A DNA stretch of 64,000 nucleotides. Origin: Escherichia phage pEC-M719-6WT.2. The translations under genes were made by a program, and so were the position numbers. The stretch lies in sequence record OQ845958.1. One strand, given 5' to 3'. This document shows positions 21,129 through 39,909 of the stretch, piece by piece; positions within the stretch are counted from its first letter, which is position 1; the number at the start of each line of letters is the position of its first letter. The notes beneath the pieces were generated by a model that saw only the letters and a list, made by a program, of their open reading frames with translations, did no database searches and had not been told where the DNA came from.

Positions 21129-21686
21129 ATGAACGAAATTAAATTAACCAAGAATAACTATGTAAATAATAAAGAGCTTCTGAAAGCTATTTCGGAGTGG
21201 AAACAGAAGCTGAATGCGAACACCGACCCGAATAAAATTATTCGCCAGAACGATGTTATTGGTCTGGCAATTATGCTTATAGCCGAAGGTCTTAGCAAAC
21301 GTTTCAACTTCTCCGGATATACCCAATCCTGGAAGCAAGAAATGATTGCAGACGGAATTGAGGCCGCAATAAAAGGTCTTCATAACTTCGACGAAACAAA
21401 ATACGATAATCCACATGCTTACATAACAATGGCTTGCTTCAATGCTTTCGTTCAGCGTATCAAAAAAGAACGTAAAGAAATGGCAAAGAAATATAGCTAC
21501 TTCGTTCATAACGTGTATGATTCACGTGACGACGATATGGTGGCTCTGGCTGATGAAACATTTATCCAGGACATCTATGACAAAATGACACAGTACGAAT
21601 CCTCTTTAGTTAAAGCGCCAGGGTCTGATAAGAGCGCCAAAGATAAAGAAGGTGATTTGGATTTTTTATATGGAACATCAATTTGA
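21129..21686 (+). CDS. 55: late-transcription sigma factor gp55
   Basis: 185 aa (same as T4 gp55); long stretches matching remembered T4 gp55 ([35 protein letters not shown]). Confidence 0.92.
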
Positions 21687-37067: not shown

Positions 37068-37307
37068 ATGAATATCACATTAATGAAACCTACCCCTAGT
37101 TCTTTTTGGAATAAATCTTTTGGTAAGCATAATATGTTTATCCAACGCACCGTAAGCAGCTGGGAACTAGTTCTTTCAGTCGGCCACAATGATTATGAAC
37201 AAGAATACGTAGAGTTCTTCGAATTTCCTGTGAAACCTACCAAGCGTCAGATTCGTCAGACAAAACGCAAATTCCGCAAAATTTATCTGGAAGATGCATT
37301 AAAATAG
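37068..37307 (+). CDS. hypothetical basic protein
   Basis: 79 aa. Confidence 0.4.
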   Translation: MNITLMKPTPSSFWNKSFGKHNMFIQRTVSSWELVLSVGHNDYEQEYVEFFEFPVKPTKRQIRQTKRKFRKIYLEDALK

Positions 37308-37364: not shown

Positions 37365-37658
37365 ATGAAAAAGTTATTAATCGCGGCAATTCTTACCGTA
37401 GCATCATGTGGTACAGCTCCAGTTACTGCTGGACTTGATAAAGACCTTTGTGAGTGGTCTATGACTGCTGACCAGACTGATGTTGAACATCAGATTTATG
37501 CTGATATTATGAACATAACTAAACGTGACCGCCCTGATATGGTTAAAGAAGTATCTGACAAATTGACTTCTGGTGACGTTATGCAGTATAACTATGTTCT
37601 GTATTGCGATGCTTCATTTGACAATAGCAAAATTGTTCAATGGGTTACAGGTGAATAA
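37365..37658 (+). CDS. sp: Spackle (periplasmic superinfection exclusion protein)
   Basis: 97 aa (same as T4 Sp); signal peptide; DKDLCEWSMTADQT and QYNYVLYCD match remembered T4 Sp; located between 41 and 61. Confidence 0.75.
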   Translation: MKKLLIAAILTVASCGTAPVTAGLDKDLCEWSMTADQTDVEHQIYADIMNITKRDRPDMVKEVSDKLTSGDVMQYNYVLYCDASFDNSKIVQWVTGE

Positions 37659-37659
37659 A

Positions 37660-38097
37660 ATGATTAACAGAAATTTAGTTATCAAAAAACTTCGCTGTAA
37701 AAATCCAAATGCACAGGCATACCGGGTGTTTTGGAGCGACGAAATTCAATACCTGGGTTATTTTCTTGTTGATAGTGATGATAGAATTACGTTTGCTCAT
37801 AAGCTTCTTAACAAAGAATTAAACCATTGGCAAGAACTTATTGCAGTCAAGTCTAAATTATTTTCGCGCAATACAATGCACCAATTGGTTTATTTTTTCG
37901 CTGATGGTATTCCTGACAAGGTTGAGTTTGATGGGTTTGAATTTAAAGACATCAATCCTAACAATGAATTGAATGACAGTATTGTTAATATGGGTATTCC
38001 TGGTAAGTACATCAAAAACAGTCTTTTGAAAATTCTGGAAACCCCTGTATATTCAGTTGACGACCAAATTTTTAATGCCTTTATGAAGCGAGATTAA
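37660..38097 (+). CDS. hypothetical protein, paralog A (C-terminal DDQIFNAFMKRD)
   Basis: 145 aa from ATG 37660; C-terminal 11 aa nearly identical to next gene. Confidence 0.45.
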   Translation: MINRNLVIKKLRCKNPNAQAYRVFWSDEIQYLGYFLVDSDDRITFAHKLLNKELNHWQELIAVKSKLFSRNTMHQLVYFFADGIPDKVEFDGFEFKDINPNNELNDSIVNMGIPGKYIKNSLLKILETPVYSVDDQIFNAFMKRD

Positions 38098-38098
38098 T

Positions 38099-38467
38099 AT
38101 GTATATTCAAAGCGATTTGTCTTATCTGAATTTTGAATTAGTTAAAAATAATGATGGTAATGCTCATTATGAATTCCGCGAGCCTCGTTATAATCAGGCG
38201 ATTGGTTATATTATTGTTAAAGATGGCGTTATCATAAAGGCTCGCTCATTTATGGTAATGAATGGGCCTTATGAAGATACTCGTGGCTATCCATTTGATA
38301 AAAAGAATGTACGCGATTGTGCAGCGTGGATAACCGGAAATCCTGAAATTGGGGTCATGCTATCTACTGAAGCAAATGACATTCTGGATGCTGGCTGGGT
38401 TAAATCTCAAGAACCGCCTACTGATATTGATGACCAGATTTTTAATGCTTTCATGAAGCGAGGTTAA
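38099..38467 (+). CDS. hypothetical protein, paralog B (C-terminal DDQIFNAFMKRG)
   Basis: 122 aa. Confidence 0.45.
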   Translation: MYIQSDLSYLNFELVKNNDGNAHYEFREPRYNQAIGYIIVKDGVIIKARSFMVMNGPYEDTRGYPFDKKNVRDCAAWITGNPEIGVMLSTEANDILDAGWVKSQEPPTDIDDQIFNAFMKRG

Positions 38468-38468
38468 T

Positions 38469-38660
38469 ATGACTGCAATGTGTACGGGCTCTAAGATTTC
38501 GGTCTTCCAGATTTTTGAAGAATATGAAATCGTGTCGCAAGACCAAGAAGCAATCCATGTTATCGCTGATGATGGTGTTACCTGGATTATTCCGTTGTAT
38601 CATGAAGACACCTATGAAGTGACTGATGCAAATGGCGATAAAGCTATCTTCGTTGTATAA
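38469..38660 (+). CDS. hypothetical protein
   Basis: 63 aa. Confidence 0.4.
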   Translation: MTAMCTGSKISVFQIFEEYEIVSQDQEAIHVIADDGVTWIIPLYHEDTYEVTDANGDKAIFVV

Positions 38661-38680: not shown

Positions 38681-38848
38681 ATGAAAACATTCAAAGATTT
38701 TATCAATGAAGATATGGTTGCCGGTGATGCAGGTGGAAACCCAACTAATATCGCAACAGGTACCACTTCCGGGGCAGTTGTCAATAAAGGTCCTGAACAA
38801 ATCCCATCAAAAAAGCGTAAGAATAAAGACGATAAACCTACAGTATAA
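38681..38848 (+). CDS. small late protein with capsid-targeting-sequence-like N-terminus (candidate internal/injected peptide)
   Basis: 55 aa, hand-translated; N-terminus MKTFKDFINE resembles T4 internal-protein CTS MKTYQEFIAE with I-x-E prohead-protease site; late promoter; basic C-terminus. Confidence 0.45.
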   Translation: MKTFKDFINEDMVAGDAGGNPTNIATGTTSGAVVNKGPEQIPSKKRKNKDDKPTV

Positions 38849-38880: not shown

Positions 38881-39909
38881 ATGTCATATATTGATAGAGA
38901 ATTTGCAGTCAAAGCTTTATCGTATCAACCACGTTACAGAGAAGTCACCGGGAGCACATTTAAGGCAAACTGTCGTTGTAAGGTTTGTGGTGACTCCCAG
39001 AAAGATTCGCACAAGGCTCGATTCTGGGCGTATACCAATCCATCTGATGGTGCGGTTTACGTGAAATGTTTTAACTGTGACTACTCCACGCATATAAGCA
39101 AATACATAAAAGAGTTTGAGCCGGATTTGCACCGGGAATATATGGTTGAGAAGTACAAGGAAAACGCCTTCGGTCGACAACGTAATGAAGTTGCAGAAGC
39201 TCCGAAAGAACCAGAAAAAACTCCGGTTATTGAAGAGCTTGCTTTTTGTGAAAGAATTGATACTTTACCAGAAGAGCATCCGATAGTTAAGTATGTAAAA
39301 AGTCGGTGTATTCCGAGCAATGTTTGGAACCGGTTATGGTTTACAAACAAATGGCCTGCATTAGTTAACTCCGTTAATCCTGGGACGTATAAGAATGAAA
39401 CGAATGAACCACGCTTGGTTATTCCTATCTTCAACGGCAAAAAAGAAATCGAATCTTTCCAAGGACGAGCTCTTCGCAAAGATGCACCACAAAAATATAT
39501 CACAATCAAAGCTCACCCAGAAGCTTCCAAAGTCTATGGCGTAGACAAGATTGATGAGCGCAAGCGCGTGTGGGTAATGGAAGGTCCGATTGATAGTTTG
39601 TTTATCCCTAACAGCATTGCGATAACTGGTGGAACATTAGCATTGGAAGCCGTTCCTTATGCTGAAACCCGAGTATGGGTAATGGACAACGAGCCAAGAC
39701 ATCCGGATACGATTAAACGTATGAAGAAGCTCGTTGAAGCGGGTGAAGCCGTTATGTTCTGGGACAATGCACCATGGCATACGAAAGACATAAATGAGAT
39801 GGTTAAATCGGAGGGCGCAACCCCTGAACAAATCGAATCATATATGGCCGATAACATTGCTCAAGGGTTGATGGCGAGAATGCGACTTTCGAAGTACGCA
39901 AAAGTTTAG
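38881..39909 (+). CDS. 61: DNA primase gp61
   Basis: 342 aa (same as T4 gp61); N-terminal zinc ribbon CRCKVCG...CFNCDY; toprim-like core. Confidence 0.9.
   Translation: MSYIDREFAVKALSYQPRYREVTGSTFKANCRCKVCGDSQKDSHKARFWAYTNPSDGAVYVKCFNCDYSTHISKYIKEFEPDLHREYMVEKYKENAFGRQRNEVAEAPKEPEKTPVIEELAFCERIDTLPEEHPIVKYVKSRCIPSNVWNRLWFTNKWPALVNSVNPGTYKNETNEPRLVIPIFNGKKEIESFQGRALRKDAPQKYITIKAHPEASKVYGVDKIDERKRVWVMEGPIDSLFIPNSIAITGGTLALEAVPYAETRVWVMDNEPRHPDTIKRMKKLVEAGEAVMFWDNAPWHTKDINEMVKSEGATPEQIESYMADNIAQGLMARMRLSKYAKV

Follow-up and report, generated by a model that had tools for sequence, protein, structure and literature searches.

Anti-DarT factor A (AdfA) is reportedly the subject of LeRoux et al. 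2022 and Johannesman et al. 2025. Few phage inhibitors of DarTG defence have been characterised; AdfA is among them, and what is established of its mechanism is that it binds DarT1. The protein contains no enzymatic domain and associates with DarT1 in a bacterial two-hybrid assay (PMC11825919); in RB69 a single substitution in its body, R164H, turns on both DarT1 binding and phage rescue (PMC11825919). The T4 protein binds DarT1 weakly, and the authors suggest other DarT variants as its real targets (PMC11825919). Here we analyse two adjacent genes, A and B, in a stretch of 64,000 nucleotides from Escherichia phage pEC-M719-6WT.2 (sequence record OQ845958.1), to which, at its full length, we refer as the window: The products of both genes are new, previously unlinked members of this known anti-defence family. 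They carry its hallmark, a C-terminal peptide that we call the tail and that also ends T4 gp61.2, i.e., AdfA itself, a point absent from the preliminary description of this DNA, which was made from the sequence alone.

A and B both terminate in (V/I)DDQIFNAFMKR(D/G). That they are otherwise divergent proteins with a common C-terminal peptide had been observed before and is borne out by BLASTP, in which the alignment is limited to the tail (12/18 identical, E = 3e-6). A repeat search of the window returned a 45-nt direct repeat (38057-38101 and 38427-38471) of 89% identity (40/45); the preliminary description had recognised the repeat, at 43 bp and about 85% identity, figures that our computation replaces, and was right that it takes in the stop codon and the Shine–Dalgarno (SD) sequence and ATG of the next gene, as is seen in both copies. 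The features concerned are the following:

37660-38097, + strand: open reading frame of gene A, 145 amino acids (aa)
38099-38467, + strand: open reading frame of gene B, 122 aa
38056-38094, + strand: tail peptide of A, VDDQIFNAFMKRD, predicted helix residues 133-142
38426-38464, + strand: tail peptide of B, IDDQIFNAFMKRG, which follows a low-confidence linker (residues 102-110) and has its predicted helix at residues 111-119
38057-38101, + strand: DNA repeat copy 1, with tail codons, TAA, and the SD (GAGA) and ATG of gene B
38427-38471, + strand: DNA repeat copy 2, with tail codons, TAA, and the SD (GAGG) and ATG of a 63-aa gene

The junctions within both repeat copies read TAA-T-ATG. Four of the five nucleotide differences between the tail DNAs of A and B are synonymous, and the fifth accounts for the D/G difference in the last codon. 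A back-translated pattern of the tail core occurs exactly twice in the 64-kb window at up to 3 mismatches and not once in 100 shuffles. Separately, an in-frame segment of the upstream gene sp (37483-37527, 60% identical) was considered as a further, third copy. In the Spackle protein it corresponds to VEHQIYADIMNITKR, to be compared with VDDQIFNAFMKRD in A; BLASTP of Sp against A finds nothing there, and we treat the likeness as probable chance.

Beyond the window, the tail marks three types of protein, all of them encoded between sp and 61.1. The first is AdfA (208-216 aa, 487 phage records, none listed from Gaprivervirus): T4 AdfA has the C-terminus SIDDQIFNAFMNRG, and RB69 AdfA carries the same tail, as read from a published cloning primer. 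The second is the A type (JS98 ORF030c, phrog_8539, E = 2e-93 for window A; about 145 aa), which is found in 85 phage records and 36 protein clusters, in Gaprivervirus and JS98-like phages only. The third is the B type (RB32 ORF033c, T2 'gp61.2', phrog_4122; 116-125 aa, 332 phage records), of which the T2 protein (118 aa) has the same ending as T4 AdfA and window B is 45-47% identical to the T2 type over its full length. The tail DNA alone occurs in 556 phage genomes at 753 places, and the question raised at the outset of whether related phages hold one copy or two is answered by one to three copies per genome. The three types are combined as follows:

AdfA only: T4 and RB69-like contigs
B only: T2
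AdfA and B: RB32-like phages, vB_Eco_CP, and the metagenome contigs L035, L036, and L043
A and B: this window, SP18, and VR7
A only: JS98-like phages and VR26

Published work counts T2 as lacking an adfA homolog. This holds for the two-module form only, as T2 has the B type. An apparent array of AdfA, B, a 33-aa fragment, and again B in phiD1 (L006, NC_027353, 2860-3000) contains 19 ambiguous bases clustered at the repeat borders and may be an assembly artefact or reflect population heterogeneity at a recombination-prone locus; it was not used as evidence.

Word-indexed searches with A or B singly gave close relatives only, whereas an alignment query combined with an exhaustive search reached further. 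A profile of all three types, run without a word index against 1.84 billion (1.84e9) representative proteins at E <= 0.001, returned 10 clusters, all of which are A, B, AdfA, or fragments; the tail is present in 7/7 full-length clusters, and the other three are fragments. The C-terminal motif (V/I)DDQIFNAFM(K/N)(R/K)(G/D) followed by a stop was present in every full-length member recovered, and in every true case it is exactly C-terminal, with Q, nine further codons, and the stop. In a 36-sequence superfamily alignment, Q-I-F-N-A-F-M provides seven of the nine invariant columns. Rare variants of the tail comprise D-to-Q in P0035, D-to-E in P0011, and, in two fragments, M-to-L (P0044) and D-to-V (P0072). 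P0068 and P0036 have an unchanged tail on bodies that share 28-37% identity with those of the window. Throughout the AdfA superfamily, then, the tail is universal. The preliminary description had allowed for a shared tail that reflects a translational-coupling constraint with a peptide not conserved in orthologs; the peptide is kept in orthologs. In the papers available to us we found no mention of a family-wide invariant tail or of a relationship between single-module and two-module forms.

A metagenome scan yielded 12 loci, all of the three known types. A scan of IMG/VR with the shorter QIFNAFM gave 27 loci, about one third of them chance matches in unrelated reading frames in which the motif is internal (tape-measure-like and others). 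DNA encoding DDQIFNAFM has 0 matches in 185,579 bacterial and archaeal genomes, which excludes mimicry of an identical host motif, and neither the family profile nor the tail peptide retrieved any sequence from the PDB. NCBI assigns one B-type protein, in P0040 (a cluster of 30 sequences), to a Limosilactobacillus reuteri metagenome-assembled genome; this is almost certainly T-even phage DNA binned into that assembly.

What keeps the tail constant can be read from its codons. Among 19 tail DNAs from four lineages and all three protein types, pairwise comparison of the nine core codons (DDQIFNAFM) gives 335 synonymous differences and 0 non-synonymous ones; the synonymous variation falls on both D codons and on the Q, I, A, and second F codons. 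In the window, A and B differ at four of the nine core codons, all synonymously, where 4.1 differences are expected from independent draws on the codon usage of this genome. Because non-synonymous differences are absent against 335 synonymous ones and the two window copies stand at random expectation, the selection acts on the peptide: The tail is under purifying selection on its amino-acid sequence, and neither DNA homogenisation nor a DNA or RNA signal maintains it. In four Gapriverviruses, moreover, the distance between the A and B tails within a genome equals that between genomes (2.0 vs 2.0). Gene conversion, which had been put forward as a force maintaining the tail, is at odds with both this equality and the 4 synonymous differences for 4.1 expected.

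We then removed the last 14 residues from all sequences and compared the remaining bodies by profile–profile alignment (hhalign). B aligns with AdfA at E = 9e-5, with its C-half at 4e-5, and with its N-half at 3.5e-4; the two halves of AdfA align with each other at 0.003, A with B at 0.0065, and A with the AdfA C-half at 0.009 (A versus AdfA ranging over 0.009-0.018). All of these tail-less alignments are colinear and run through a hairpin, G-x-[IF]-x-V-[KD]-D-x-x-I, and then F-[DTS]-x-x-N-[VIM], which opens the main helix. In a column-shuffle control with 60 shuffles per pair, the score of B versus the AdfA C-half (31.7; shuffles 11.9 +/- 3.0) and that of A versus B (21.0; shuffles 12.0 +/- 2.6) were reached by 0/60 shuffles each, and that of A versus the AdfA C-half (20.4; shuffles 12.4 +/- 2.5) by 1/60. 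Homology of the body to the AdfA module in the absence of the tail is therewith found for B and is weaker for A. Within AdfA, the two halves are alike (P0045 and others), residues ~35-80 (VIVKDNEIVAWADF...PFTYYNIMDLAY) corresponding to residues 125-172 (IFVKDNRIIRINY...DFTENNINHIAS), and B matches both, so AdfA appears to be a fusion or internal duplication of two such modules with one tail.

The Pfam model of AdfA (PF23813, gathering score 27 bits) was also applied to the three types. T4-type AdfA scores 444 bits on this hidden Markov model (HMM), and T2-type orthologs of B exceed the threshold with 31-32.4 bits, residues 21-118 aligning to HMM positions 112-211. Window B reaches 20.7 bits through residues 109-122, i.e., its tail, on HMM positions 198-211 of 211; window A gives no match, and relatives of A score 14-16 bits by the tail alone. 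A and B, at 145 and 122 aa, each comprise one module and do not show the two-module architecture of AdfA (208-216 aa). Judged by its sequence, B clearly corresponds to the C-terminal half of AdfA, of which it is a single-module homolog. A is a distant paralog within the superfamily, for which the signals from sequence, fold, synteny, and tail are individually weak but consistent.

AlphaFold2 (AF2) models of A and B have an identical order of elements: five strands, helix, strand, helix, linker, and tail helix. The mean predicted local distance difference test (pLDDT) score is 79 for B, with a body at ~90, and 71 for A, with a body at 80-90 and residues 103-132 below 50. In Foldseek searches of BFVD, the B model found the A ortholog of VR25 (E = 1.8e-5, TM 0.60) and a 212-aa protein of AdfA length (2e-4), and the A model matched the B type (E = 8e-5), the Foldseek alignments in each case including the tail. 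The earlier proposal that A and B are tandem paralogs accordingly stands, on remote similarity without the tail, agreement of the predicted folds, and a shared locus. In the single-module A protein, a conserved helix (KYIKNSLLKILE) and a linker connect the body to the tail. The linkers, in which P, E, and K are frequent, differ by up to ~25 residues, and linker and tail together have pLDDT values of ~40-50 as opposed to ~90 in the body; as modelled, the tail would be a short helix that is tethered rather than buried, at the end of a variable, low-confidence linker. Residue 164 of AdfA falls, in the superfamily alignment, on the main body helix, which comprises residues 68-79 in B and 70-81 in A. 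The residue aligned with it is D in window B and Q in A, with H one column before, the placement being uncertain by one column.

Taken together, A and B are in our judgement probably old, diverged single-module members of the AdfA superfamily, in which a fast-evolving, toxin-recognising body is combined with an invariant, functional tail peptide. Each protein would be a globular body that evolves fast, joined through a linker whose length varies to the almost invariant helix (V/I)DDQIFNAFM(K/N)R(G/D). The two genes occupy a variable cassette slot between sp and 61.1 in the anti-toxin island of T-even phages, and their products may act as AdfA does, as stoichiometric binding inhibitors of host toxins, probably of ADP-ribosyltransferases of the DarT type or variants of these. 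Target specificity would come from the body. The constant tail, which is most likely a functional peptide, would supply a common function, be it contact with an invariant site of the toxin, docking to an invariant partner of host or phage, or self-association; the docking peptide proposed in the preliminary description would be a reasonable candidate.

Several points weigh against this assignment. The T4 ΔadfA mutant is without a DarTG1 phenotype (PMC11825919), and the natural targets of the family are uncertain. Both window proteins fall under the Pfam gathering score. The likeness of the A body is weak, with hhalign probabilities of 2-6% and Foldseek alignments that include the shared tail, and the AF2 models were built on shallow alignments, of 15 and 23 sequences. 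Low pLDDT values in the tail may mean that the helix was not placed rather than that it is flexible, and its hydrophobic moment is not unusual, being reached by 32% of shuffles. Lastly, exchange between tails does occur occasionally and adds to their likeness, as codons 12-13 and the identical tails in Tequatrovirus indicate.

A bolder form of this reading is possible, albeit doubtful on balance. It sees a modular system of anti-toxin cassettes in which a hypervariable body is tethered to a universal 'warhead' or docking helix of 9-13 residues, DDQIFNAFM, that would either insert into an invariant site of the ADP-ribosyltransferase (its catalytic cleft or its DNA cleft) or bring the inhibitor to an invariant hub of the host or the replisome, with the tail DNA doubling as portable homology by which T-even genera gain, lose, and exchange cassettes. 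Were this true, the tail peptide alone would be a transferable inhibitor or an affinity handle.

Alternatively, the tail might be an integral structural element that contacts no other macromolecule: a helix at the C-terminus that packs on the sheet, or one that mediates dimerisation. The tail is helical in both models and universal in the family, and the A family has a second invariant helix just upstream, all of which speak for such a role. We nevertheless consider it unlikely: The linkers differ greatly in length and sequence, linker and tail have the low pLDDT values (~40-50) given above against ~90 in the body, and the tail is unchanged while bodies diverge down to 20-30% identity, which is unusual for an intramolecular contact.

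Concerted evolution as the main cause, in which conversion or unequal crossing-over keeps the 3' ends alike and the peptide is under no special constraint, has traces of exchange at the tails in its favour. Codons 12-13 are AAG CGA in A and B of Gaprivervirus and AAT AGA in AdfA and B of Tequatrovirus, i.e., they are specific to the lineage; the AdfA tail of T4 and the B tail of T2 are identical at 45/45 nt; and the cores of the A and B tails of VR20 are identical. In addition, deletions and duplications are bounded by tails. VR26 (L029, 2309-2365) is without B, and the D-type tail of its A gene is joined directly to the 73-aa gene that comes after B in SP18 (L002, 2269-2670) and VR7, as would be expected if recombination at the two tails, or close to them, had deleted B. 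In T2 (L005, MH751506), TTAGAGGTTAGTATG lies directly 3' of the sp stop and before the B start (2483-2497). It contains a 13-nt relic, AGAGGTTAGTATG, that with 2 mismatches represents the terminus of a tail of the AdfA type together with SD and ATG, which suggests that T2 stems from an ancestor with AdfA and B that lost AdfA almost precisely. In vB_Eco_CP (L046, OZ034683), the B tail and its junction are present as a 59-bp tandem duplication at 2428-2546 (TGCTGCACCTTCTATTGATGACCAAATTTTTAATGCTTTTATGAATAAAGGTTAATATG, twice); from the upstream ATG, the orphan third tail is read as MCCTFY*, in a frame other than that of the tail. Rearrangement of this region via short homologies is known from T4 (PMC9391042). 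Because of VR26, the T2 relic, vB_Eco_CP, and the identical tails, we regard the tail DNA as a recombination substrate that shapes the content of cassettes: The conserved tail DNA is the homology at which cassettes are deleted, duplicated, and joined. Concerted evolution as the origin of the constancy is nonetheless quite improbable, since three families in several genera show 0 non-synonymous and 335 synonymous differences in the core, the window copies differ at four of nine core codons with equal distances within and between genomes (2.0), and conversion alone cannot keep amino-acid changes from spreading. We therefore read the role as recombination substrate as a consequence of the constraint on the peptide, not as its cause.

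It is very unlikely that a DNA or RNA constraint alone preserves the repeat, be it a coupling signal, an RNA structure, or a promoter, for instance one formed by TGCTT, which resembles a MotA box, and TAATAT as its −10 element. The SD, the stop, and the ATG of the next gene do lie within the last 14 nt of the repeat, and the T4 tail DNA contains AATGCTTTT, 12 nt, and TAATAT, which by eye resembles a middle promoter. However, the SD and the stop–start overlap reach only the last two to three tail codons, and the Ala codon and other third positions vary freely; the idea of a MotA box was rejected on the former, which lies inside TGCTT and is GCT, GCC, or GCA. RNA folding of both window tails and the T4 tail gave no stable structure (z = +2.07, −0.16, and −0.95), a promoter and terminator scan gave no sigma-70-like, promoter-like, or terminator-like site on either window tail, and the peptide is the same while the gene downstream differs (B, the 63-aa gene, the 73-aa gene, or 61.1). 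Finally, the proposal of the preliminary description that a recent tandem duplication is being diversified, under which the tail and the 45-bp repeat would be the last remnant of a young pair, deserves next to no credence: A and B are indeed adjacent on the same strand and have a common 3' end including the junction, but their bodies are without BLAST similarity and related by remote profile similarity only, A (85 records) and B (332 records) are separate conserved families with members in other genera and are distributed separately (JS98-like phages have only A, T2 has only B, and RB32-like phages have AdfA together with B), and their tails are already at saturation at synonymous sites. The duplication behind A and B is old and highly diverged. 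What remains of the preliminary interpretation are the paralogs and the conserved C-terminal peptide; the recent duplication and the tail maintained by conversion fall away.

The window belongs to a Gaprivervirus of the SP18/VR7-like kind, the nearest genomes being the Gapriverviruses EAWsc9 and ECML-359 (99%), SP18 (94%), and VR7 (86%). A and B lie within a T-even-type block of replication and early genes, and the genes listed here are all on the + strand:

35035-36474, + strand: open reading frame of gp41 helicase
36546-36863, + strand: 105-aa open reading frame between gene 41 and dmd; phrog_2110, function not assigned
36864-37067, + strand: dmd (Pfam Dmd, E = 1.6e-20)
37068-37307, + strand: tifA/61.4 ortholog (DUF7279, E = 9e-20; 45% identity to T4 gp61.4, E = 1e-16)
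37365-37658, + strand: sp (spackle; Pfam T4_Spackle, E = 4e-43), the genomic anchor of the 61.2 locus
38469-38660, + strand: 63-aa gene (RB69 ORF033c type), downstream of the A/B cassette array
38681-38848, + strand: 61.1, downstream of the 63-aa gene
38881-39909, + strand: gene 61, primase gp61, 3' of 61.1

A and B are thus placed between sp and 61.1 with primase gene 61, which is the slot of AdfA. The genes sp, A, B, and the 63-aa gene form a tightly coupled run that starts with sp and has TAA-N-ATG at each junction (TAA-A-ATG between sp and A). The T-even region around dmd and tifA has been described as a possible anti-toxin–antitoxin island (PMC9391042). With dmd, the tifA/61.4 ortholog, and sp all present by Pfam, the early attribution of this neighbourhood to exclusion and anti-toxin functions is supported (PMC9391042).

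Further observations concern the surroundings of the two genes. In most Gapriverviruses a 73-aa gene lies between B and the 63-aa gene (SP18, L002, 2664-2885; VR7, L003, 2639-2860). It is not in the window (38467/38469), EAWsc9, ECML-359, or MN01, and its absence from the window accounts for a length difference of ~180 bp from the other Gapriverviruses. The 73-aa gene is annotated as 61.4-like and contains RPTKRQIRK as TifA does; Gapriverviruses that carry it therefore have two TifA-like genes. The 105-aa open reading frame (36546-36863), another uncharacterised gene of the anti-toxin island, has a YHGSS motif and an annotation similar to RB69 ORF040c, and a Pfam scan of it gave zero matches. 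The C-terminus of gp41 (36440-36474) is SDLDDLAAQMKF. Just 3' of gene 41 lies an 11-bp stem-loop rich in G+C, AAAAAGGGGCTTACAGCCCCTTTTT (36482-36519). It overlaps with a good promoter of the sigma-70-like kind (CTTACA, 17 nt, TG-TATAAT), and the unit resembles the early-promoter stem-loop cassettes of T4-type genomes.

For the family as a whole, these results mean that it is larger than the literature uses, as single-module relatives fill the same slot in T2, in all Gapriverviruses, and in phages of the JS98-like group, and AdfA would be a two-module fusion of the single-module unit. The only nearly unaltered part of the family is a C-terminal peptide, apparently tethered, under strong selection at the protein level. 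Gain and loss of cassettes at the tail DNA explains part of the lineage-specific gene content of the anti-toxin island of T-even phages. Mechanistically, nothing here is surprising yet, but the proposal is directly testable.

Compared with known systems, A and B are closest to AdfA (PF23813), with which they share the locus (after sp and before 61.1/61), the invariant tail, and the body module with its VKDxxI hairpin followed by an F-x-x-N helix; like AdfA, they are small, without an enzymatic motif, and part of the same anti-toxin island. They differ from AdfA in having one module (122-145 aa) instead of two (208-216 aa) and in scoring below the Pfam threshold, and A possesses one more conserved helix and, ahead of the tail, a long insert. 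The T2 'gp61.2'/RB32 ORF033c protein (118 aa) is an ortholog of B with the same tail and position, whereas the Gaprivervirus copies have diverged enough to lose the Pfam match of the body; where the T2-type B of Tequatrovirus has an upstream neighbour, this is AdfA rather than A.

A second comparison is offered by cassettes of the PeSL type (promoter and stem-loop), which mediate modular shuffling in T4-type genomes. At the repeat of A and B we found no promoter-like or terminator-like site and no stable fold on the tails. Dmd and TifA (T4 61.5 and 61.4) are small early proteins that directly bind and neutralise the RnlA/LsoA and ToxN toxins and whose content varies with the lineage (PMC9391042). 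They are neighbours of A and B in the same island, but have no relation to them in sequence or fold and no common C-terminal peptide.

The tail itself can be compared with the clamp-binding peptides of T4-type phages, in which gp43, gp55, and gp33 dock on the gp45 clamp by their C-terminal peptides. As in these, the tail is a short conserved peptide at the extreme C-terminus on what would be a flexible tether. The gp43 protein of the window (C-terminus 32200-32226) ends in KKASLFDMFDF, which we take to be a clamp-binding peptide of the RB69 type; the IFNAF of the tail shares with it only I/L-F-D/N-x-F, five residues that were chosen post hoc, and the DLDFLYG motif of window gp55 (C-terminus 21660-21686) does not match the tail. 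Moreover, the clamp-binding motifs differ between T4 and RB69-type phages, whereas the tail of the AdfA family is invariant across both. This difference argues for a more conserved partner of the tail.

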